Assembly: GCA_964597145.1 (NCBI GenBank)
Contig: CAZQWH010000001.1
Location: 15,696 to 79,695 of the forward strand
Length of the DNA: 64,000 nt
Origin: an uncultured Candidatus Saccharibacteria bacterium
GTDB taxonomy: Bacteria > Patescibacteriota > CAZHWT01
Reading direction: 5' to 3'
A program made the position numbers and the translations under genes. The number at the start of each line of letters is the position of its first letter. The stretch's first letter is position 1. Shown in pieces: positions 8,597 through 63,860 of this stretch. The notes beneath the pieces were generated by a model, which did no database searches, was not told where the DNA came from, and saw nothing but the letters and a program-made list of their open reading frames with translations.

Positions 8597-8754
8597 AGAC
8601 TTTAAGTATAGCAGGCATAGAATAGAAATTGAGGGTAAAGCCTGCCAATAATTACCCCCAGCCCCAAAGCCAACCTCAAGCTCACCCCACCCACTCCATC
8701 TCAACCACCGTATCCGAGAATACCCAAACAAAACAATTCATCACAAATTTTAAA

Positions 8755-8821
8755 TCAAGCAACCTAGGTTCAAACACATTTAACCTCGGGGGTTAAACAG
8801 CTTTGAACCTAGGTTGCTTGA
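8755..8821. repeat. solo REPIN-like palindromic element (arm-core-arm)
   Basis: Perfect 20-bp inverted arms tcaagcaacctaggttcaaa / tttgaacctaggttgcttga flank the core ttaacctcgggggttaaa. The same arm and core sequences flank the RAYT gene at 27847-28723. Confidence 0.7.
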
Positions 8822-8957
8822 TTGAGTTGAAATGGATAAGAATCCGAGGTTGCCTGGGAGGAGATAGTCAAGCAGCCAGCATTATTCATAATGGTGTTTA
8901 ATGAGCTATAGTGTAAGATGAGGGAGGGTTGAATGCACCAATTGAGAGGAGTACGTA

Positions 8958-10663: not shown

Positions 10664-12097
10664 ATGGATACTCCTGCGAGCCAGCCAGCTGTCAACCCAG
10701 CCCCTTCTACTCCTGCGCCCACCCCAACTCCAGTACCAGCATCAACCTCTGGAGGCGGATCAGGAAAGAAATTATTGTTTATAGCCGTTGGCGCCTTACT
10801 GCTGATCTTGATTTTGGGACTCGTAGCCTTCTACTTTTTGCGTGGTAACCAGGCCAACTCCAACAAACCAGTAACCCTAACCTATTGGGGATTATGGGAA
10901 TCGCCCGAAATCATGCAGCCGCTGATTGATCAATATCATCAAGACCATCCCAATGTCACCATCAACTATGAGCAACGCCCTATCGACCAGCACTATGCTA
11001 CAGTCAAGGCTCGGATTAGCCAGGCCAGCACCAGCAATAACCAGCCAGACATTGTACGGGTTCATAATTCTTGGGTTCCAGTTTTAGCTAATTATTTATC
11101 ACCGGTACCAGCTAGTGCCTACAGCCGCGAAGAATACGAATCAGTTTTTTATAACGTTACCAAAGATAACCTATTACTTAATGGTCAGTATTACGGCATT
11201 CCATTAATGATGGATGGTTTAGCCTTAGTTTATAATCAGGAGTTATTTAATACAGCTGGAATCTCGGCTCCGCCTTCTACCTGGGACGACGTGCGCCATG
11301 ATGCAGCCAAAATCACCCAACGTGACCAAAATGGTAACTTGACCATAGCCGGCATTGCCATGGGTAGCGCTAAGAATGTCGATCATTTTGCCGATATTAT
11401 TGGTCTGTTAATGGCTCAAAATAGCGTGGCCTTCAAAGACGGCAATGGCAATGTGGCTTTCGATAAATCTATTTCAGCCGACGGTCGCAACCTGGGCGCA
11501 GAAGCCCTAGCTTTCTTTAACTTATTCTCAACCGTAGAAAAAGGTTGGGACGACACCATGGAGCCATCTACGCTAGCTTTTAGTAAAGGTAAAGTCGGGA
11601 TGATTTTAATACCGTCGTGGCGGGTATTGTCATTGGTAGACCAAAACCCCGAATTGCAAATTAGGGTCGCACCTGTGCCACATTTAACCACCAACCAAAA
11701 AGTAGGCTATGCATCGTATTGGGTAGAGGCAGTGCCAGCCTCCAGCCCAAATCAAGCCGAAGCCTGGAAATTCTTACGCTACTTGTCAGAACGAGAGCAA
11801 CAATTAACCATGTTTAATGCTGCACAGCAAACCCGCAGCTTCGGTGAGCCCTATTCACGCAAAGATTTAGCTGACAGCTTATCCACCGATCCACTACTGG
11901 CACCGTTCGGCAGCCAGGCAGCTAACTACACCAGCTCATTATTTGCAACAAATACCGGTGCCGCCGAGTTAAATGGTGCCATCAATGCCGCCCTCGCCCA
12001 GGCCATAACCCAGGCTAAAACTACCGAATCGGCCGAAGCCGCCCTCACAACATTGGCCGAAAAAGTCACCTCCATCCTCACTCAAGAACGGCAATAA
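10664..12097 (+). CDS. ABC-transporter family-1 extracellular solute-binding protein with a P/T-rich N-terminal linker and TM anchor
   Basis: Pro/Thr/Ala-rich N-terminus, a TM helix, then a sugar-binding-protein-like core (LTYWGLWESPEIMQPLIDQY...). No permease or ATPase gene is adjacent. Confidence 0.7.
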   Translation: MDTPASQPAVNPAPSTPAPTPTPVPASTSGGGSGKKLLFIAVGALLLILILGLVAFYFLRGNQANSNKPVTLTYWGLWESPEIMQPLIDQYHQDHPNVTINYEQRPIDQHYATVKARISQASTSNNQPDIVRVHNSWVPVLANYLSPVPASAYSREEYESVFYNVTKDNLLLNGQYYGIPLMMDGLALVYNQELFNTAGISAPPSTWDDVRHDAAKITQRDQNGNLTIAGIAMGSAKNVDHFADIIGLLMAQNSVAFKDGNGNVAFDKSISADGRNLGAEALAFFNLFSTVEKGWDDTMEPSTLAFSKGKVGMILIPSWRVLSLVDQNPELQIRVAPVPHLTTNQKVGYASYWVEAVPASSPNQAEAWKFLRYLSEREQQLTMFNAAQQTRSFGEPYSRKDLADSLSTDPLLAPFGSQAANYTSSLFATNTGAAELNGAINAALAQAITQAKTTESAEAALTTLAEKVTSILTQERQ

Positions 12098-12537
12098 CCT
12101 CCGATAGTTCAAACCCCATAATCACCATCCGTCATTCCAACTGGCCTTTAACTGTGAGCGCCGGTAGAATTGGATCGGGAGTCTGTGCCGTAAAAAATAA
12201 ATTCGAAATTCTAAACTTGAAATCTTAAACAAATACTCCGTATAAATCAAAGATTTAGCAGAAGCTCTAAATCATAAATTTTAAATAAGACTCAAGACAA
12301 AAGACAAAAAGACTAAAACCCACCCTCTCCCCGTCATTGCGAATAAAATGAAGCAATCTTCTCTATCCCCACCAGGATCTGCCCGCCATGCCGTCGCCGG
12401 CGAAGCGGGCAGATTGCCATAGTCGCCCACGCTCCTCATTCGAGGCTGATCCTTCGACCATGAGCTTGAGACTGTCGAATGGGCAATGAGGCTTGAGTCT
12501 TTAGAGCCGAACGGCTTCGCCATGACGTATACTAACC

Positions 12538-12600
12538 TTCTCCAGACTCCAGACTCCAGACTCCAGACTCCAGACTCCAGACTCCAGACTCCAGACTCCC
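12538..12600. repeat. heptanucleotide tandem repeat (TCCAGAC) x about 8.5
   Basis: Directly visible perfect 7-bp tandem array in the galU-SBP-groES intergenic region. Confidence 0.9.
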
Positions 12601-12732
12601 GCATCCCGACACCAGACACCCTCCCCATCATTCTAGAACCAAGCACAGCCAAGAGCTAAAATTCCTCCGCTATCCGCTATCCGCTATTTCCAACCTTATA
12701 CGCTGCAATCCAACAGACTCAACTCTCGCCTC

Positions 12733-12787
12733 TTGACAGTCTGAGCTAGCTATCACTATAATAGCACTGCACTTATTCAAGTGCTAA
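12733..12787 (+). promoter_or_regulatory. groESL promoter (TTGACA-N18-TATAAT) overlapping a CIRCE operator (aTAGCACTg-N9-aAGTGCTAA)
   Basis: Matches the CIRCE consensus TTAGCACTC-N9-GAGTGCTAA at 12761-12787, with -35 and -10 boxes immediately upstream. Confidence 0.75.
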
Positions 12788-12843
12788 TTTCAAATTGTAT
12801 AACACAGGTTATTGTAAATATAACGATATAAGGAGGTTTTTAT

Positions 12844-13143
12844 ATGGCAAAATCATCAATTCAACCATTAGCCGATAAAGTTTTAATTAAACCAACTCCC
12901 AAAGAAGAGGTAACGGCTTCGGGTATTGTGCTGCCAGATACCGTGTCTAAGGAGCGTCCTCAAATGGGGGAGATTTTGGCGGTCGGTCCTGGCTCAATAA
13001 CTCCCGAAGGCAAAGTAATTGAACCCCGGGTTAAAGTTGGGCAAAAAGTCTACTTTACCAAGTATGGCCCAACTGAAATAAAAGTAGACGAGGAAGAGCT
13101 GCTGATTGTTGAAGAGAAAGACGTACTGGCGATTATTGCATAA
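12844..13143 (+). CDS. groES: co-chaperonin GroES
   Basis: MAKSSIQPLADKVLIKPTPKEEVTASGIVLPD... Confidence 0.95.
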   Translation: MAKSSIQPLADKVLIKPTPKEEVTASGIVLPDTVSKERPQMGEILAVGPGSITPEGKVIEPRVKVGQKVYFTKYGPTEIKVDEEELLIVEEKDVLAIIA

Positions 13144-13159
13144 TCGCTCAAAATTCGAA

Positions 13160-14914
<1,755 letters not shown>

Positions 14915-17557: not shown

Positions 17558-17714
17558 TTGTCATTTCAAATTAACTCTGATACTCTGGAATAGACGCTTG
17601 CCTCTTTTCAGAGCAAGATAGACTGGTGTAGGATGGTATCAGATATAGATCTCAGATCGCACTTGCCCTTTAAAAAGGGACAAGTTGACCTTTTTGAAGG
17701 GGGGTGAATATTGT

Positions 17715-17912
17715 ATGGCATTTAGCGTAGTAAGTGATAAATCCGGAAAGACGTATCACCTCCACTCTAAGACTGTTTCGCTTAAGAATACTGGTCGACA
17801 GCAAACAATTTACTTCTTTTCAACTAACCCTGAAGGATCAATCGATCTACCGACGGGTTACCAGGTTGTACAGAACCAACGAAGCGGGCTCCCTTTCCTC
17901 AAACGTGCTTAA
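17715..17912 (+). CDS. small hypothetical protein
   Basis: MAFSVVSDKSGKTYHLHSKTVSLKNTGRQQTIYFFS... preceded by a G-rich SD-like sequence. Family not recognised. Confidence 0.35.
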   Translation: MAFSVVSDKSGKTYHLHSKTVSLKNTGRQQTIYFFSTNPEGSIDLPTGYQVVQNQRSGLPFLKRA

Positions 17913-19542: not shown

Positions 19543-19638
19543 TGCGAGAGAACGAAGTGACTGCGGCAATCTACACTAGTTCAATCGAGATCTACTATAT
19601 TTCACAAGATTGCCGCGGCTTCGCCTCGCAATGACGGA
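19543..19638. repeat. nested palindromic element GTCATTGCGAG...CTCGCAATGAC
   Basis: Outer inverted repeat gtcattgcgag / ctcgcaatgac and inner inverted repeat gcggcaatct / agattgccgcggc. The same arms flank the ~60-bp repeat copy at 40022-40168. Confidence 0.7.
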
Positions 19639-19765
19639 GCAGTTAGCGCTTTTGAGCTTTGCGTTGTGGCTTTACGTCTTTAAATTTGAGTTTTGACCTT
19701 GTAACCTGTCAAAAGCATGTTGTCTAGTATATGTTTTCTATCTATCTGAGTTAAATAGGGTTAAT

Positions 19766-19790
19766 TATATAATATATTATATAATTCTTT
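19766..19790. promoter_or_regulatory. AT-rich perfect palindrome TTAATTATATAATATATTATATAAT (promoter-like element family, copy 1)
   Basis: Identical 25-mers occur at 42686-42710 and 56661-56685. An interrupted copy lies at 63615-63625 / 63693-63702. Confidence 0.6.
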
Positions 19791-19796
19791 TTTTCG

Positions 19797-20855
19797 TTAT
19801 TTCAGGCCGAGCTGGGCTAGCTTTTGGTGGTATTTTTTCATTATTTCCGATTGATAGTCGTGGGGGTGAAAGGCTAGGCGGTTGGGCTGGATGGTTTCTT
19901 TGGTGGGTTGGCGCATGATGCGCTGCTGGAATTTGTGGGCAAGACTGTCAAGCCAACTCAGGATGCGGGATGCGGTGAACAGTGACGAGTGACGAGTGAC
20001 GAGTGACGAGGTGAGGGGGGTGTCGTCATCCTGAACTTGATTCAGGATCTGGAGATTGGGGTGTTTGTAGAGGCTAGATCCTGAAGCGAGTTCAGGGTGA
20101 TAATGCATTTCGGTCAATGGGATGCGGGGGGTCGGAGGTCGGAGGTCGGAGGCGGATGAGCGGCTTGGGTACCTAGAAGGCTGAAGGCTGAAGGCTGAAG
20201 GCTGGATTTGGGAGGTTGGGAAATTGGGGAGAAAGTCGGTGATCCAGTTATTGATGTGGATATATTGTTCGTAGGTCTGGTGACGATTGAGGATGGGGAT
20301 GATGTGGGCTAGCTCGTTGGCGACGTAGAGGTTACAGTATTCTTCATTCAGATTGTCAATGGATAGCCACATATTGAGGCACAATTTATTATTGACGCGG
20401 CGGGGATCATCGGTTGGTTTGCGACGCCGACCGGTCAGGTTGAGAAGGAGGATGAGGATGAGGCGGGTCAGCCAGAGTCGGTTTCTGTCAGTGATAATCA
20501 GCAAATCAATATCATCGTCGGCTGTGGGGGTACCGCCGGCGACGGAGCCGGTGATGGCGACTAAATTAATCCAAGGGATTAGCCTAAAAATCCAGAGGGA
20601 TTTTTGGGCAGTTTGTAGTTTGTAGTTTGTAGTTTGTAGTTGGTATTTTTTTTGTTTTGCTAATTCGTTACGATTGTTTAATGTCCACGTGTTGTCTTGA
20701 TGTTTGAAGCTGGGTGACTGAACTTTGGACAGCCATTTGATATCTTTCAATTCATGTTGGATCAGATATTTTGATAATTCTTCGGTGGTGAGGGCCTGAT
20801 TGAATAGGTCAGCGTAAGCAAGAGTTTTAATGATGGCGGATTCGAGTTTATCCAT
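19797..20855 (-). CDS. Pol-beta-superfamily nucleotidyltransferase-domain protein carrying in-frame heptamer repeats and a 60-bp repeat element
   Basis: Canonical NTase motif ITGSVAGGTPTADDDIDLLIITD with a downstream acidic strand NMWLSID. The reading frame runs through (CAAACTA)x4, (GAAGGCT)x4, (GGTCGGA)x3 and (ACGAGTG)x3 tracts and through repeat copy E. Confidence 0.5.
   Translation of the reverse strand: MDKLESAIIKTLAYADLFNQALTTEELSKYLIQHELKDIKWLSKVQSPSFKHQDNTWTLNNRNELAKQKKYQLQTTNYKLQTAQKSLWIFRLIPWINLVAITGSVAGGTPTADDDIDLLIITDRNRLWLTRLILILLLNLTGRRRKPTDDPRRVNNKLCLNMWLSIDNLNEEYCNLYVANELAHIIPILNRHQTYEQYIHINNWITDFLPNFPTSQIQPSAFSLQPSRYPSRSSASDLRPPTPRIPLTEMHYHPELASGSSLYKHPNLQILNQVQDDDTPLTSSLVTRHSSLFTASRILSWLDSLAHKFQQRIMRQPTKETIQPNRLAFHPHDYQSEIMKKYHQKLAQLGLK
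20031..20099. repeat. GTCATCC...GATGAC-family composite palindrome, copy E (inside the NTase ORF)
   Basis: gtcatcctgaacttgattcaggatctgg...agatcctgaagcgagttcagggtgat. Confidence 0.6.
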
Positions 20856-20949
20856 GGCTAGTTAGTTGTAACAGATTGGGAATTAGTTAGCAAAAAGAAA
20901 TCCCAGCAGGTTAATACCGCGCTGGGATAATGAATAGCAAGGTGAAATG

Positions 20950-21276
20950 CTACGGGCCAGGTTTGTTCCAAGCTTCACGCTCGGCCTGGATGGCCTGCCA
21001 TTCTTCCGAAGCGTCGTCAATGTCGGCGTGCGCCTGGTTGACTGCATTGAGCTGGACTTGTCGGGAAATCCATTGCTCTAGTTCATGCTGGGCTGCTTCA
21101 ACCGCCTGTGGATTACTCTGAAAGTTTGCTCTCCAGACTAAGGCAAAATCGGCCAATTTGGCGGCAAAGTCTTCGGTAAACTTCGGCTGTTTGAGTAAGT
21201 CTGGATCAGCATCTCGCAAGAATTCGGCAAATATTTGCTGCAGCTCGACTCTTGTGTCGGCGTCTTGGGCACTCAT
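20950..21276 (-). CDS. hypothetical acidic protein
   Basis: 108-aa ORF on the same strand as its neighbours. No family recognised. Confidence 0.4.
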   Translation of the reverse strand: MSAQDADTRVELQQIFAEFLRDADPDLLKQPKFTEDFAAKLADFALVWRANFQSNPQAVEAAQHELEQWISRQVQLNAVNQAHADIDDASEEWQAIQAEREAWNKPGP

Positions 21277-21415
21277 GTTGCTCTCCTTTTCCAGCTGGCT
21301 TCACGAAAGCGAACTTGGAAGGATTATAGCATAGTTTTTTCAGATACAGCTGACGACAACTGAAAACAAAACCCCCTCGAACACAGAAATGTGCTGAGGG
21401 GGTGACAAGGAATCT

Positions 21416-21757
21416 TTAGGTTGAGACACCTGGGTCGTTGGTCCACACACCTCGACCACCAATGGCGGTATGACTAAAGACTACTGCTTCAATAATTTCA
21501 CGACGAAGACTTACTTCTATCCCTTCTTTGAAAATGGGCAAAATAAGCTGCTCGGCTTTGGTTGCATCGACATGGTTGGCGCAAACCGCGACATAGATTT
21601 CTCCCCCAAAATTGAGGAGGGTTGCTGTTGCGTGAAGTCTGGCGATGGTTGCCACCCATTGGGCAGTTGCTGCACACACCCTAGCCTGGTTGATAGATTC
21701 AAAGGCAACCACTTTAATCGATACCTCTTCGCGTATGATCTGAGTATCGTCTGGCAT
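21416..21757 (-). CDS. hypothetical protein
   Basis: About 113 aa from MPDDTQ, or 121 aa with the track start at 21781. Alternating beta/alpha pattern. No family recognised. Confidence 0.4.
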   Translation of the reverse strand: MPDDTQIIREEVSIKVVAFESINQARVCAATAQWVATIARLHATATLLNFGGEIYVAVCANHVDATKAEQLILPIFKEGIEVSLRREIIEAVVFSHTAIGGRGVWTNDPGVST

Positions 21758-21914
21758 TCTCTTTACCTCTCTCTTAAGCAAAGGACTTCCTCCAAGATCT
21801 TAAAGACTATATAACATGATTTAATGTAAGCGTCAAAAATGATTTCGAATGAAAAAGCAAAAAATATACCCCCAGTCTTCAATGAGTCTGAGGGTATTGG
21901 CCTTCGCTGGGTGG

Positions 21915-22493
21915 TTAGTGAATCACTTGCAAAGGCCCTCTACGGAGTAATTGCTCCGTCTTTTTTTTCAACCGTCCCCTAAAGTCTTCCTCGATGGTAG
22001 TGCTTGTCTGGGTAGACTGGCTTTGCCAGTGCTTCCAGTCCAACACCAAGTCAAGCAGTTGGCCAGCAAGATAGTTGGCCAACTGGGGGTTCTGGTTAAG
22101 GCCGGGTAGGGGCTGTTGCACCAGCCGGGCCATGATTGGTTGCAGCTCTCTCCGAATTCTTTGCTGGAGGTAATAGTCCTCCCAAGTGCCACCTCCTCGG
22201 TCGGTAACATTCTGGGCAACCTCCCGAACGAGCTGCTTGAGTGAGTTCGTCATGGTCGCCTGTCGAATCTTGACGGTTTGGTTGCTACTTTCAGACTCAA
22301 TAGTAACGATATAGCACGGCTCGTCAGTATCCTTGGCCAAGTCAGCCAAGAGCTCGGGTGGCAAATTATGGACCTCAGACAAGAACACCAGATTGAGTAG
22401 ATATTCCTCTAGGTATGGGTCCAAGCTGTCGCAGTCTAGTCTCCACCACTGGGAGTATCCGCCACGGATTGTACTCTTGATATCAATAATCAC
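21915..22493 (-). CDS. hypothetical protein
   Basis: 192-aa ORF, first gene of the four-gene minus-strand cluster. Confidence 0.45.
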   Translation of the reverse strand: MIIDIKSTIRGGYSQWWRLDCDSLDPYLEEYLLNLVFLSEVHNLPPELLADLAKDTDEPCYIVTIESESSNQTVKIRQATMTNSLKQLVREVAQNVTDRGGGTWEDYYLQQRIRRELQPIMARLVQQPLPGLNQNPQLANYLAGQLLDLVLDWKHWQSQSTQTSTTIEEDFRGRLKKKTEQLLRRGPLQVIH

Positions 22494-22595
22494 GGCTCAC
22501 TCTCCTGGTTGTTTGCGCGATACAATCGATCGATTTGAGTGTCAGAAGTATAGCATAGATTGTCAGATAGTAGCCCATCAGATATACTACACAGC

Positions 22596-23570
22596 ATGAA
22601 AGAACGAGTATTTTCTGGAATTCGGGCCACGGGGCAGCTGCACTTGGGTAACTATTATGGTGCCATTAAAGGCATGCTGGAGTTGCAAGATCAGCATGAA
22701 ACTATTTATAGCGTTGTCGATTTGCACTCCATCACCACACCTGTGGACTATACAACACTACCAGAAAAGATTAGAGGGATTGCTTTAGATTATTTAGCAG
22801 CTGGGCTTGATCCGCAAAAGTCCATATTAATGGTGCAATCGCAGAATCCCGCCCATCTAGAATTAGCCTGGATATTAGGTGTTTTTGTCCCAGTGACCTG
22901 GTTGTCTCATTTACCTACCTATAAAGACAAAAAGGCTCAGCATCCAGATTTTGTCAATTGGGGGCTACTTTCGTATCCGGTGCTCATGGCGGCAGACATT
23001 TTGGCCTACAAGGCCCCTCTAGTGCCGATTGGCAAAGACCAGGAGCCTCATTTAGAAATAACCAGGGAAATTGCCCGTAAATTTAATAAACAATTTGACT
23101 ATGATTTTCCTGAGCCAAAAAGTTTTGCTACAAAAGGCTACTCACTGCCGACATTAATGGGTGATGCCAAGAAAATGAGCAAATCGGTGGAAGGGAGCTA
23201 TATTGCACTTTCCGATAATCTGCCCACCATACAAAAAAAGTTGGCCAAAGCCCCAACCGATACCGGCAATGAGCCAGAGTTGAGTCAAGGAACACAAAAT
23301 CTATTTGCCTTGATGGAGCTGTTTAGTCCCAAAGATATCACAGAGCAATTTCGGGCCGCTCGTCAGGATGGATCAATTCGGTATGGAGATATGAAGAAGC
23401 GTCTAGCCGATGATATCTTTGTGGAGCTAGCACCCGTACAAGAGCGACGTCGCGAGATTGAAGCAAAGTCGGGATATGTGGAAGAGGTGTTGGTTGCAGG
23501 AGCTGAAAAAGCTCGAAAGATTTCGGAGCCGATACTTAAAGAGGTGAAAGAGCTAGTGGGGCTAGGGTAG
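22596..23570 (+). CDS. trpS: tryptophan--tRNA ligase
   Basis: GIRATGQLHLGNYYGAIKG (HIGH-region equivalent) and KKMSKS. I took MKERVFSG as the start. Confidence 0.9.
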   Translation: MKERVFSGIRATGQLHLGNYYGAIKGMLELQDQHETIYSVVDLHSITTPVDYTTLPEKIRGIALDYLAAGLDPQKSILMVQSQNPAHLELAWILGVFVPVTWLSHLPTYKDKKAQHPDFVNWGLLSYPVLMAADILAYKAPLVPIGKDQEPHLEITREIARKFNKQFDYDFPEPKSFATKGYSLPTLMGDAKKMSKSVEGSYIALSDNLPTIQKKLAKAPTDTGNEPELSQGTQNLFALMELFSPKDITEQFRAARQDGSIRYGDMKKRLADDIFVELAPVQERRREIEAKSGYVEEVLVAGAEKARKISEPILKEVKELVGLG

Positions 23571-23730
23571 GCGTGAGCATGGCGGGCAGGTCTTGGTTGG
23601 GTACAGAAGATTGCTTCATTACATTCGCAATCACGGACAATCTCTTCTACAGACTACAGACTACAGACGATAGACTAAAACCCCCGCCCGCCACGCAAGC
23701 CAGCTTGCTGGCGTTGCGGGCAGGTAAAAC

Positions 23731-27510: not shown

Positions 27511-27846
27511 TTAAGTTAAGAGTGGTAAGGTCTAAGTTAGAAGTAAAAACACCCCGCCCCTGAGCAGGGTGTTTTGTTGCACCTTAAGCAGAGAGCGGCT
27601 GCAGCATCGATAGCAACCAGTTAAGCTCATCAGCCCCAGCTTCATGATTGTGTGTCTCTCTCGGCTGGCGCAGATAGAGCAAACGCATGCCTCCGTTGCA
27701 GCTGATAACTAAACCAGTGGCAGCATCGAACTGTACATTGAGCGTGACTGCTGAAAAACAAGCGTAACTAGCTTCGCGAACTGGACGCATTTGGCGGTTA
27801 TGCCCTTCACAGAGATCAGCAGCATCGGCATAAGCGGTGTAAAATG

Positions 27847-28723
27847 TAACCCCGGGGGTTAAATGAGCTTGAACCTAGGTTGCCTGCTTATTTCGAATGA
27901 GAAACGAGTGTGTTAGTCAGAAACAACGCCCTGGCCTTCGTGCAATAAGTGTTCAAGAGACTTGAGACTCTTTTGATAGTCAGCTTGGTTTAAAACAAAG
28001 TTGCAATAAGAATGCACATCATTGAACATACTTAAAACTGGGGCAGTGGTAATAAACGAATTCTTGCCTTTTATATAAAGTGGCAATGACGACCAAGGAT
28101 AAGAAAGAATCCCATTTGGGGTTTTTACAAGATAGGCGGTTGACGGATTTAAGTGGATGTAGCGCGATACATGGCTCAGCTGCTCAGCAGTCTCTATTCG
28201 CACAGCCTTAAAGGATGGCAAAAATAGCGTGCCTTTACGTGCATGTTTCAAGTTATAGTAACGAGTATAACTATTTTGAAGTTGACCTAAATATCTTGAA
28301 ATACCATCGTCTTTAACTTGTCTGAGTAATAAGTGGAAGTGGTTAGGCATTATGCAGTAGGCAATCACTTCAACCAAGCGCGACGATGGACTCCAGTTTG
28401 CGCGTATAGCCGCCTGCTGTTCTGAATTAAGAGCTAAATATCGTGAAAAACTAATTGTATTTGCTCCATAGCAGTAAAACTCTAGGCCAGATAGTATTCT
28501 GCGATATTCACGCAAGTCAGTAAATGTTTGACGCTCATCCTGTCCGCGATTAAAAACATGGTATATTTGCCCGTTGCATATAGGATAAATTCTTCTCATA
28601 CGACCCCCAATTAAGTACAACATGGGCAGTGCAGTGAATAACATCAACATATACGCCTCTGCATGCTGATTGTCAAAGTAAACAACCAACCTAGGTTCAA
28701 AGCTGTTTAACCTCGGGGGTTAA
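27847..28723. mobile_element. RAYT/IS200-like element: Y1 HUH transposase flanked by inverted REP-like hairpin repeats
   Basis: Left end 27847-27886 (taaccccgggggttaaatgagcttgaacctaggttgcctg) and right end 28684-28723 (caacctaggttcaaagctgtttaacctcgggggttaaac) are reverse complements of each other. They enclose the transposase gene. Confidence 0.7.
27913..28599 (-). CDS. REP-associated tyrosine transposase (RAYT) / IS200-IS605-family TnpA (Y1 HUH)
   Basis: IYHVFNRG...YCIMPNHFHLLLRQ (HUH motif) ...SYTRYYN (catalytic Tyr region). Start chosen at MRRIYP. The track ORF extends to 28689. Confidence 0.75.
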   Translation of the reverse strand: MRRIYPICNGQIYHVFNRGQDERQTFTDLREYRRILSGLEFYCYGANTISFSRYLALNSEQQAAIRANWSPSSRLVEVIAYCIMPNHFHLLLRQVKDDGISRYLGQLQNSYTRYYNLKHARKGTLFLPSFKAVRIETAEQLSHVSRYIHLNPSTAYLVKTPNGILSYPWSSLPLYIKGKNSFITTAPVLSMFNDVHSYCNFVLNQADYQKSLKSLEHLLHEGQGVVSD

Positions 28724-28976
28724 ACAGTTATTTCATATTGTTTTTACGAATTGAAGGTTTTAGTCATGATGACTGTGTATTTAGTGATCTAATCTGGTCA
28801 CCAAATGCATGACGTAAATCCCTAGAAATTGCCAGATTGCTGTGGTATAGTGCGGCTGGTTGTAATTGTTTGCTTTTACAACGTTTCACCTTGAAAAAAC
28901 GAATACACAAAAACCCATCCAAGTAATACCATGAATGGGTTTGAGAATAACGTAATGTATTTGTGTGCCAATTACA

Positions 28977-42598: not shown

Positions 42599-42669
42599 CA
42601 AATCTTTCCCGCCATCCCCGCATACCAGCATACTTGCATACCAACCTATCAACCATGTATGAAAATTAT

Positions 42670-42712
42670 TACAGAGATAAATCATATTAATTATATAATA
42701 TATTATATAATT
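42670..42712 (+). promoter_or_regulatory. promoter-like element ACAGAGATAA-N8-TTAATTATATAATATATTATATAAT (copy 2)
   Basis: Same composite as at 56643-56685 and, degenerately, 46729-46752. Confidence 0.55.
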
Positions 42713-43106
42713 AATTACACTACTGAAATTTCAAAAACATCATCAAATTACTCTATGGCAATCAAATTAATTAAAGACTACAAAGGGGCAAGCTCATCTT
42801 GACTGAAGCAGGTAAATTTGCTATAGTGCAAAAGATTTTGAATGTAGCTGTGGTAGTGTATGAAGGCGGTCCAATAGGTCCGTTTTTTTATTACACATAG
42901 CTTGTTAAAAATGTTGAATAATGAAAAGTGGAAATGATAAAACTAATTCGAAATAATATCACTTTAAAGAAATTTTAAAGAAATGGATTAGTTTTTTCGC
43001 TATTCGCTATTCGAATTTCAGATTTGAACTACTTAGATTCTCAGGCAAGCTGAGAATGACACAAATAATGCGAGGCTAGTGGATTAGTCCGCAAGGAGAA
43101 TTTTTT

Positions 43107-56611: not shown

Positions 56612-56642
56612 CCCTTATACACTCCTTATTACAGTAAAATAA

Positions 56643-56685
56643 CAGAGATAATTTAGATTAATTATATAATATATTATATAATACT
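56643..56685 (+). promoter_or_regulatory. promoter-like element ACAGAGATAA-N8-TTAATTATATAATATATTATATAAT (copy 3)
   Basis: Identical palindrome 25-mer, with the ACAGAGATAA box upstream. Confidence 0.55.
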
Positions 56686-56839
56686 TTAGTAGACAGGAAG
56701 CCTTACGCCTAAAATCAAATCTCCCCAAATCCCTCAACACCCATAACTCAGATCTCCAAACCAACTCCACCTTCCCGTCATCGCGAGGCGGAGCCGTGGC
56801 GATCTTCCGTAATCTACCCAGATGACTCAGTTGTTAACA

Positions 56840-63374: not shown

Positions 63375-63860
63375 AGGAAAAGGTCGACAATGAAAAAGGG
63401 ATTGCGGCTTTGTGGTCATTTCTTTACCAACCGAATGCAACATATGCTCCGCCGAGCTCCAATAAAAAGGTTATAGAGAAAGTCATAAGCTCATCCTTAA
63501 AATAGTCATCCACTGGGCGAAAAAAGCAAAGATTAAAACTAAGACCCAAAACACTGTCCTCTTAATGCTCACTACGAATCACAGAGTTATTTAGGGTTAA
63601 TTATATAATTGCCACAATAGGGTATACATCCAATACCCTATTGTCATCCTCAATTAAATTGAGGAACCGCCATTATATAATTAAATTTATTAATAAATAC
63701 TAAATACCAGATGCCATTTACTAGCCACCACATCAGCTTTAGCCAATGCCTGCCTGCTAGCCAAATTGACGGTTGCAATGCTACAATGTAACAAGATATA
63801 GTAACTATCCAACCAAGTAGTAACTCTGAGTTAATTTATTAAAAAGTTGAAGGAACTGCC

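Follow-up and report, generated by a model that had tools for sequence, protein, structure and literature searches.

A Microgenomates-wide nucleotidyltransferase gene with in-frame heptamer arrays, next to a variable set of lineage-restricted small genes

The 64-kb stretch of contig CAZQWH010000001.1 analysed here (referred to as 'the window' at its full length) contains, between positions 19797 and 22493, four co-oriented minus-strand open reading frames (ORFs), the last of which encodes a nucleotidyltransferase (NTase). The original prediction had read these ORFs as a single module of unknown function, possibly one of signalling or defence. We consider it reasonably probable (at roughly 0.6) that the locus comprises an intact NTase of a Microgenomates-wide family, whose gene carries in-frame heptamer repeats, together with separately transcribed, lineage-specific neighbours, and that no four-gene system is present. 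The novelty lies in an architectural variant within a known superfamily, and in a known class of repeats that occupies an unusual (coding and family-enriched) setting. All four predicted ORFs were found in place, separated (in order) by intergenic gaps of 133, 139 and 94 nt:

22493-21915, minus strand: ORF of p192 (192 aa)
21781-21416, minus strand: ORF of p121 (121 aa if read from TTG; the start used by gene callers, ATG 21757, is the probable one and gives 113 aa)
21276-20950, minus strand: ORF of p108 (108 aa)
20855-19797, minus strand: NTase gene, an ORF of 1,059 bp (352 aa)

A Microgenomates family of Pol-beta nucleotidyltransferases

A search of 5.8 billion proteins recovered 186 homologues of the NTase, and every named one belongs to Patescibacteria/Microgenomates (Daviesbacteria, Gottesmanbacteria, Levybacteria, Woesebacteria, Shapirobacteria and others). 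The homologues usually measure 285-300 aa, and the family hidden Markov model (HMM) scores 339 bits across 19800-20855, while a scan of 2.9 million viral contigs found no relative of the NTase. The GS...DDDID motif, which had been recognised as that of a Pol-beta-superfamily NTase and placed about 100 residues from the N-terminus, is indeed there (G103-S104 ... D114-D115-D116-I-D117). In an alignment of 71 homologues, from which residue invariance was read throughout, G103, D115 and D117 are invariant, together with W128, R131, R144/145, C159, N161, A179, E181, N202 and W204. The protein carries the superfamily signature (hG[GS] x9-13 [DE]h[DE]h on a beta-hairpin) as well as the alpha/beta core fold of the superfamily, and on the basis of its GS...DxD motif it is probably active in nucleotidyl transfer.

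The AlphaFold2 (AF2) model, built from 71 sequences, reached a mean predicted local distance difference test score (pLDDT) of 85.2 and a predicted template modelling score of 0.81, with values above 95 in the core, above 90 in the C-terminal helices and below 50 only at residues 230-275. It depicts a three-part family, in which an N-terminal winged helix would precede a minimal Pol-beta core and a small C-terminal helical domain would pack back on that core. The parts of the window protein (all encoded on the minus strand) are the following:

about residues 1-62, minus strand: winged helix
residues 63-91, minus strand: long helix
about residues 96-210, minus strand: minimal Pol-beta NTase core
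about residues 218-292, minus strand: repeat-derived tether
19800..19979, minus strand: conserved C-terminal helical domain (residues 293-352; LDxLxxxxQxxxMRxxTxExxxxxxxxFHPxDY; 79 bits against the C-domain HMM)

The modelled winged helix hints that the partner is a macromolecule (nucleic acid or protein). Foldseek placed MntA/MNT at the top of the fold matches (E 1.9e-3, probability 1.0) with ANT adenylyltransferases also near, although the likeness is weak, and the CD-NTase CdnE came far down the ranking. The protein thus belongs to the MNT/ANT branch of Pol-beta-type NTases, in which it has its own architecture, and the resemblance to CD-NTase, cGAS or OAS enzymes proposed in the original prediction did not hold. 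A profile search against PDB sequences gave nothing below E 0.5 (only 1wot, at E 0.53). As the family lacks a Pfam family of its own and a solved relative, it represents a reasonable biochemical target in a phylum in which few functions are known.

The C-terminal domain, its tether and its split and fused forms

After the core, which ends at LPNF, and before the C-terminal block, the window protein holds about 62 residues more than its relatives, inserted between positions 230 and 231 of the family HMM. The view that repeats have invaded the ORF was borne out, since these residues are intergenic-type repeat and are predicted to be disordered, whereas the suggested decay of the C-terminal half was not: the domain that follows is conserved, lies in frame with the N-terminal part, retains the characteristic residues of the block (Q310, M314, E320 and F329-H330-P331), and packs on the core in the model, at pLDDT above 90.

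A reading-frame survey of 84 homolog-containing sequences (the window plus 83 species-representative loci; NTase homologue-carrying and related loci of other genomes are labelled L with a number) revealed that the N and C parts share one frame in 61 of them. In L053 the family is split into ORFs of 223 and 72 aa that overlap by ATGA, and at least 13 further genomes are split, all of these breaks coinciding with the site of the insert (L009, L010, L014, L017, L027, L036, L038, L039, L040, L044, L052, L060 and L064). In these 13 the N part terminates in ...LPNWKP* and the C-terminal domain comes from an overlapping ORF in another frame. The ATG of their second ORF is situated inside the codons of the invariant N-x-W motif; such overlapping ORFs could reflect translational coupling of two subunits or programmed frameshifting. 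The covalent link between core and C-terminal domain is therefore optional in the family, which explains why a long disordered insert is tolerated in the tether.

The family also occurs in fused forms. The entire protein is joined to an adenylyl/cytidylyltransferase resembling RfaE domain II in L006 (588-1940), and in L056 and L068 the C-terminal domain (as the ORF after the N domain) is joined to the same RfaE-domain-II-like domain; in the three genomes this part scores 79-87 bits, which is under the equivalog cut-off. A PPAT-like gene comes next after the C-terminal domain of the family in L082, and together with the fusions it offers a lead to a context of sugar-phosphate or cofactor nucleotidylation. 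A LicD/fukutin-like phosphotransferase, considered on account of the cytidylyltransferase-like fusions, was set aside as a loose lead only, for LicD matched neither in Pfam nor among the fold matches. The RfaE-II-like fusions, the genomic context beside solute-binding protein (SBP) and groES-groEL genes (see below) and the absence from phages point to a lineage-specific housekeeping or envelope-related role for the family, away from defence.

Heptamer arrays inside the NTase gene and across Microgenomates

The four heptamer arrays within the NTase ORF that had been noticed beforehand are all present and in frame. Two copy numbers had been slightly undercounted: the arrays given as three copies of GGTCGGA and of ACGAGTG hold 4.0 and 4.3 units. 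The ORF's dispersed repeat (copy E in the earlier naming) is likewise real, and corresponds to an inverted doublet of a palindrome resembling repetitive extragenic palindromic (REP) elements. As predicted, the frame reads through all of these repeats without a stop and into the C-terminal domain:

20610..20641, minus strand: (AACTACA)x4.6, perfect; encodes QLQTTNYKLQT (residues 72-82)
20176..20204, minus strand: (AGCCTTC)x4.1, GAAGGCT on the plus strand; encodes QPSAFSLQPS (residues 218-227) at the start of the tether
20130..20156, minus strand: (TCCGACC)x4.0, GGTCGGA on the plus strand, 23 nt perfect; encodes SASDLRPPT (residues 234-242)
20026-20050 and 20076-20100, no strand assigned: inverted doublet of the 25-nt palindromic REP-like element TCATCCYGRACTNGATYYRGGATCT, in frame (residues 252-277)
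19981..20010, minus strand: (CGTCACT)x4.3, AGTGACG on the plus strand; encodes TSSLVTRHSSL (residues 282-292) at the end of the tether

On the plus strand, Tandem Repeats Finder described the first of these as AGTTTGT x5.7 at 20610-20649 (32 nt perfect) and additionally reported GGATGCG x2.1 at 19961-19975. Four of the seven perfect heptamer tracts (at least 3 copies) of the window fall within this single ORF (binomial P = 2.5e-6). The TCATCCYGRACTNGATYYRGGATCT element has seven copies in the window (0 expected from shuffles), of which the five outside the NTase gene are intergenic (24227, 38002/38035, 40101 and 52018). With respect to the family HMM the SASDLRPPT residues are insert states, while the N-terminal array leaves the length of the protein unchanged in comparison to its homologues. 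Three heptamer arrays and the palindromic doublet have lengthened the tether by about 62 residues, by chance in frame and stop-free and predicted to be disordered, and the fourth array recodes part of a conserved helix at constant length.

For wider comparison we used two sets of more distant loci (each comprising an NTase homologue and at most 10 kb of flanking sequence), namely the 83 species-representative loci and 80 Joint Genome Institute (JGI) metagenome loci (163 in total). The latter came from a scan in which the best match had 41% identity and the close subfamily was not recovered, and they served solely as a replication set. Across 1.27 Mb of Microgenomates loci, 38 perfect arrays with three or more copies had period 7, against 1, 5, 4 and 1 with periods 5, 6, 8 and 9, and the JGI set gave 7 arrays of period 7 against 0-1 for other periods, so that period 7 exceeds periods 5, 6, 8 and 9 by roughly 8-fold or more. 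The usual array measures 30-35 nt, and 41 of the 45 arrays are located inside long open ORFs, such as the Pfam-verified tsaD of L011 (2712-2743 and 3020-3049) and the Pfam-verified topA of L063 (four arrays, 12647-13542). Further perfect arrays of 30-35 nt were observed in frame within intact, essential genes of L016, L046, L074 and L082. The Gottesmanbacteria L011, L046 and L074 bear similar units (TTTGATA, AATTTGA and AATTTTG) at about one place, the host in L046 and L074 being a similar-sized ORF at the position that corresponds to the tsaD of L011.

NTase homologues host a disproportionate share of these arrays, both in the first set (10/37, 1.8 expected, P = 7e-6) and in the JGI set (5/7, 0.76 expected, P = 2.6e-4), and hence in the two combined (15/44, 2.9 expected, P = 7e-8). 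Within the family the arrays are found mainly at HMM positions 32-44 (a variable loop of the winged helix) and 217-237 (the tether). At positions 32-44 four HMM-mapped genomes carry four different units, and a fifth (L107) has an array at the matching nucleotide offset. As array residues mostly occupy match states, the arrays replace sequence and do not add it. The unconstrained segments of the family are recurrent spots in which slippage-made arrays survive.

Heptamers have been described as over-represented in bacterial genomes, with polymerase slippage proposed as the cause, and arrays of four units are the most frequent ones in Xanthomonas (PMC4692102). The arrays reported here share with the Xanthomonas GGGAATC, Nostoc GGGGAYT and cyanobacterial short tandemly repeated repetitive (STRR) heptamers the excess of period 7 and a typical size of about four units (PMC4692102), and differ from them in that the published heptamers are mainly intergenic and have one unit per genome, whereas here all units differ and many lie inside intact, even essential, genes. 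Our literature search found no description of heptamer arrays for bacteria of the Candidate Phyla Radiation, to which the ultra-small Microgenomates belong. An intergenic array downstream of trpS consists of 13.7 units of GTAGACA in L177 (3789-3884) and of 4.4 units of CTACAGA in the window (23647-23677), so that at one and the same intergenic place relatives differ in the unit of the array as well as in its copy number. As a general product of slippage, heptamer arrays of about four units recur in these genomes; their occurrence inside intact Microgenomates genes, essential ones included, and their approximately sixfold enrichment in the NTase family are what lend them a modest interest.

The palindromic doublet has a parallel of another kind. 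Palindromic elements of Rickettsia have reportedly been inserted in frame into genes, and the doublet resembles them in being a dispersed, otherwise intergenic palindrome that sits inside an ORF, in frame, within a surface-exposed and tolerant part of the protein. It is nevertheless unrelated to them and much shorter (the palindrome has 25 nt), forms a doublet and is accompanied by heptamer arrays.

Gene order and transcription units

Signals that would separate the four genes into individual transcription units are distributed along the whole cluster. The terminator hairpins were assessed by direct folding against 200 shuffles, none of which folded as well as the GC-rich intergenic hairpins; a consensus promoter/terminator scanner had missed those of the minus strand, which have loops of more than 8 nt.

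22547-22555, minus strand: extended -10 for p192 (TGcTATACT)
21859..21898, minus strand: terminator-like hairpin with U-run after p192 (-21.4 kcal/mol, z -3.6)
21808..21836, minus strand: promoter-like site for p121 (TTGACG, 17 nt, TATATA)
21363..21403, minus strand: terminator-like hairpin with U-run after p121 (-23.0 kcal/mol, z -4.7)
21323-21331, minus strand: extended -10 for p108 (TGcTATAAT)
20892..20928, minus strand: terminator-like hairpin with U-run after p108 (-19.9 kcal/mol, z -4.7)
20865-20893, minus strand: promoter-like site for the NTase gene (TTGCTA-17-TACAAC), ending 9 nt before the ATG

The ATG of the NTase gene has no Shine-Dalgarno sequence. A tblastn search with p192, p121 and p108 matched none of the 163 loci (83 + 80) that carry an NTase homologue. 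The idea of a four-gene module thus fails on three counts, i.e. the predicted terminators and promoter-like sites between all genes, the lack of co-occurrence, and the changing content of the slot in close relatives (0 to 3 differing small ORFs), and the conserved gene order that such a module would display across related genomes did not emerge.

Among 81 more distant loci, 70 have the NTase gene directly 3' of an SBP_bac_1 gene on the same strand (median gap 20 nt), with groES-groEL next and a VanW-type gene and tsaD upstream. The window possesses the same landmarks elsewhere, with an SBP gene at 10664-12097 (35% identity to the SBP representative of L033) and groES-groEL at 12844-14914 (groES 12844-13143), and in the 746 nt between the SBP gene and groES (12098-12843) no copy or remnant of the NTase was found. 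This SBP-groES slot is rich in repeats, among them (CTCCAGA)x11 at 12540-12617 and (TCCGCTA)x3 at 12666-12687. In the clade of the window the NTase gene has moved to the neighbourhood of trpS, where it adjoins the divergent trpS across a slot that is empty in L181/L182, holds a 120-aa distant relative of p121 in L177/L178 or an unrelated 112-aa ORF in L179/L180, and is filled by p192, p121 and p108 in the window. The slot beside the NTase contains two unrelated ORFs in L003, and in L095 a 179-aa Emfourin-like protein precedes the NTase. What lies between trpS and this conserved Microgenomates gene is a variable slot, which in the window holds three lineage-restricted small genes that, by their predicted hairpins and promoter-like sites, would be transcribed separately.

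The trpS gene has a history of its own. The TrpRS of the window (22560-23570) is encoded on the strand opposite to that of the NTase gene and shares only 33-34% identity with those of L001 (5819-6835) and L003 (6066-7070). For the flanking genes, which encode a histidine kinase and a response regulator, identity between the window and L001/L003 is 64-84%, and L177, L179 and L181 have the window-type TrpRS (71-80% identity), which suggests that one of the two clades has had its trpS replaced by a distant copy.

The small upstream proteins

The three upstream proteins proved, as had been anticipated, to be essentially without known relatives. Searches of Pfam, NCBIfam and PADLOC with all four proteins of the cluster gave motif-level or sub-threshold matches only, and no effector domain in the small ones. 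The N-terminal domain of p192 is Emfourin-like (Pfam E 1.2e-5; 26.0 bits against a cut-off of 27), the best Foldseek match of its AF2 model (pLDDT 75, 4 sequences) is emfourin (6zyg, E 8e-3, TM 0.27-0.42), and its counterpart in L095 scores 30.7 bits for Pfam Emfourin, which is above the cut-off. A C-terminal helical domain follows in p192, and p108 is a small helical paralogue of this domain (BLASTP E 9e-6) as well as of the 179-aa protein of L095 (E 4e-15). The sequence search with p192 returned no relatives except itself, and a profile of p192, p108 and the L095 protein found no further ones among the 5.8 billion proteins. For p121 an exhaustive HMMER search of 1.84 billion representatives gave one true relative (P0125, 52% identity), which adjoins trpS in L096; two weaker matches (978 and 1,239 aa) were discarded as low-complexity repeat proteins.

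Emfourin (M4in) inhibits protealysin-like M4 metalloproteases, and is co-operonic with the M4 protease protealysin that it inhibits (PMC9505478). In p192 the match lies below the cut-off, the protein has the additional helical domain that it shares with p108, and no protease gene is adjacent (its neighbours are trpS and p121), nor did Peptidase_M4 appear among the best 25 of 74 Pfam families matched by the 41 ORFs of the window.

Alternative explanations

The original prediction leaned towards a signalling or defence operon, in which an NTase of the type found in cyclic-oligonucleotide-based antiphage signalling systems (CBASS), or an OAS-like one, would make a nucleotide messenger and the small proteins would serve as sensors or effectors. 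The co-orientation of the four genes, the position of GS...DxD about 100 residues from the N-terminus (a chain position that, like the superfamily, is shared with CD-NTase, cGAS and OAS) and weak PADLOC matches to the candidate systems PDC-M05A and PDC-S09 (E 2e-4 to 2e-3) would fit it, as would the fast divergence of the NTase, which is about 53% identical to that of L177 while TrpRS reaches 80% and the small protein p75 95%. However, the PADLOC matches are limited to the approximately 30 residues of the motif (residues 96-130), the family-specific sequence models and the two-lobed fold of CD-NTases are not matched, no effector gene is adjacent, terminator-like hairpins separate all genes, the small genes are missing from the 163 loci, and the usual context of the family is housekeeping (SBP, groES-groEL, tsaD), with no relative found in the viral contigs. 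This reading is largely refuted, and we regard it as very improbable. An MNT-type antitoxin, or an enzyme that AMPylates a neighbour in the style of type VII HEPN-MNT systems with a small upstream protein as its partner, also seems unlikely to us, if somewhat less so. MntA/MNT folds rank first among the structural matches, p121-like ORFs precede the NTase in L177 and in the window, and Emfourin-like/p108-type ORFs precede it in L095 and the window. Against this, the NCBIfam MntA model scores 12.7 bits (cut-off 60), the TM-score normalised to the query is at most 0.25, and neither a HEPN match (Pfam, NCBIfam) nor, by inspection, an Rx4-6H motif was found in p108, p121 or p192. Moreover, the NTase is three times the size of MNT and has further conserved parts (the N-terminal winged helix, the RRRKP, CLNMW and NxW motifs, and the C-terminal helical domain), the putative partner is not constant among relatives and is missing from L181, and the family is chromosomal and vertically conserved beside SBP/groESL in most genomes. 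Nor is the protein an ordinary antibiotic NTase, an outcome that the original prediction had named as contrary to its own reading: compared with ANT enzymes (AadA/ANT(3'')(9), AAD(9), ANT(4') and LinB) it is 10-14% identical, it has no ANT or Lnu match in NCBIfam or Pfam and no PDB sequence match, ANT enzymes lack the additional winged helix, and the genomic context of the family, conserved throughout a phylum-level clade, is housekeeping-like. A pseudogene whose C-terminal half was destroyed by repeat invasion is equally as improbable as the defence operon. The intergenic-type repeats in the ORF speak for it, and the open frame alone is weak evidence of selection, because 18% of shuffled inserts of the same C-rich composition stay open; conservation is the stronger argument, and with the C-terminal domain in its correct frame at 79 bits and all catalytic-motif residues intact, the gene is not decaying and the pseudogene reading is contradicted.

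A further possibility, to which we give a fairly low probability, is that the gene is phase-variable and that selection maintains the arrays. As stated in the original prediction, with a 7-nt unit any change of one copy shifts the frame: the gain or loss of a unit at the N-terminal array would leave a stub of 89-92 aa (OFF), and at the tether arrays proteins of 229-304 aa that lack the C-terminal domain (core-only), so that the arrays leave the gene formally prone to slippage. The presence of four arrays of 4.0-4.6 units (a unit length not divisible by 3) in one ORF, the repeated hosting of arrays by the family in independent genomes (at the same positions and with different units), and the conservation of the N-terminal array at the DNA level in L095 argue in its favour, as do the contig ends at the two longest arrays described below. 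Yet none of the 84 homolog-containing sequences presents an out-of-frame allele that is due to an array, and all array-bearing homologues are in frame (L015, tried as a frameshifted OFF allele, changes frame because of a run of N, and L053 is the clean two-ORF split with ATGA overlap); arrays of equal size reside in the essential tsaD and topA, copy number is low (about 4) and stays near 4.5 units in both the window and L095 in spite of 48% protein divergence, and the NTase of the close relative L177 has no array. The neuO gene of Escherichia coli K1 offers a precedent, being translated only when the number of its 5' heptanucleotide repeats is divisible by three; an in-ORF array would likewise permit translation here only at frame-keeping copy numbers.

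The preferred reading, in which the arrays would most probably be a by-product rather than a tuned switch (we infer them to be neutral passengers), has to accommodate several observations that weigh against it. The approximately sixfold enrichment of arrays in one family exceeds what tolerant loops alone would obviously explain. The N-terminal array lies in a conserved helix that contains the invariant K79, and the L095 orthologue (52% identical) holds the same array over 31 nt with one mismatch (4.4 against 4.6 units); between the two genes it is the most DNA-conserved stretch of 11 codons (94% of nucleotides and 82% of third positions, compared with 58% and 39% gene-wide), which is not expected of a neutral passenger. 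On the enzymatic side, the later strand of the core, where a third catalytic carboxylate would be expected, bears the invariant C159 and N161, the closest invariant acidic residue being E181, and Pfam support is marginal, with NTP_transf_2 (PF01909) at 21.8 bits against a cut-off of 21 (E 2.5e-4) and confined to the roughly 30 residues of the motif (96-125). Finally, all ten Logan contigs that reach the two longest arrays (at least 30 nt) end there. The Logan contig assembly uses k = 31; the assemblies of runs SRR11843816-36 match the window at 100% identity in every overlap, and their contigs were retrieved with p192, p108 and the downstream 478-aa gene as queries, since they break inside the NTase gene, which was therefore not usable as a query of the contig index. 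Eight contigs from eight runs stop at 20610-20614 (the far edge of the 32-nt array), two from two runs stop exactly at 20010 (the far edge of the 30-nt array), and the 22-nt array at 23647-23668 is crossed unbroken. A single allele should give no contig branch at the arrays. In periodic runs of 32 and 30 nt no 31-mer occurs twice, so a break implies that the sample contains a further sequence with the same purely periodic 30-mer. The contigs end where a longer run would make them end, and not where a shorter allele would. Candidates for this further sequence are a longer allele, a different locus, and a relative in the same sample that carries the same unit (L095 being a precedent that makes the last plausible), and breaks in 100% of the samples are explained by a fixed cause no less well than by polymorphism.

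It appears doubtful, though it deserves mention, that a process specific to Microgenomates overwrites variable protein segments with heptamer arrays of about 31 nt at unchanged length, with the NTase family as its favoured target, and that the arrays of this gene constitute real slip-strand switches that vary cell-envelope modification in an episymbiont; the envelope is suggested by the SBP-type neighbour and by the repeated joining of the C-terminal domain with an RfaE-II-like sugar-phosphate nucleotidyltransferase. Were this so, the N-terminal array would turn the enzyme off and the tether arrays would toggle it between a full and a core-only form, the latter resembling the naturally split version of other genomes. 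Should read data reveal length heterogeneity, the gene would stand as a rare phase-variation candidate from an uncultivated bacterium of ultra-small size. In L095, the N-terminal extension of the NTase orthologue (940-1011) consists of (AAATCCG)x4.7 followed by (CTAGCACC)x3.6, and lies between the sole available ATG and the conserved domain, a classic place for a repeat-controlled start region.

Other repeats and small ORFs in the window

Rfam models matched nothing in the window at gathering score, and a tRNA search of the window found none. A dispersed repeat of about 48 nt with the AT-only palindrome AATTATATAATATATTATATAATT occurs at 19743-19790 (directly after the stop codon of the NTase gene), 42669-42716, 56640-56687 and 63579-63626; the first three copies are intergenic and the fourth lies past the last long ORF, and they may be bidirectional terminators or regulatory sites. 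Repeats with AACCTAGGTTCAAA...TTTAACCTCGGGGGTTAAAC (8753-8823, 27844-27889 and 28680-28750) bracket a 258-aa ORF (27913-28689) and are seen again behind the gene ending at 8731; they may serve as common terminator hairpins or mark where a small mobile unit ends. A small plus-strand ORF at 17685-17912 (65-75 aa, MAFSVVSDKSGKTYHLHSK...) is 95% identical in L177, far above its neighbours, and is strongly constrained. A GC-rich inverted-repeat element (…CGTCATTGCGAGGCGAAGCCGCGGCAATCT…) is found in intergenic position at 19556-19650 (downstream of the NTase gene) and at 12330-12400 (in the SBP-groES slot), and constitutes a further dispersed repeat family of this genome.

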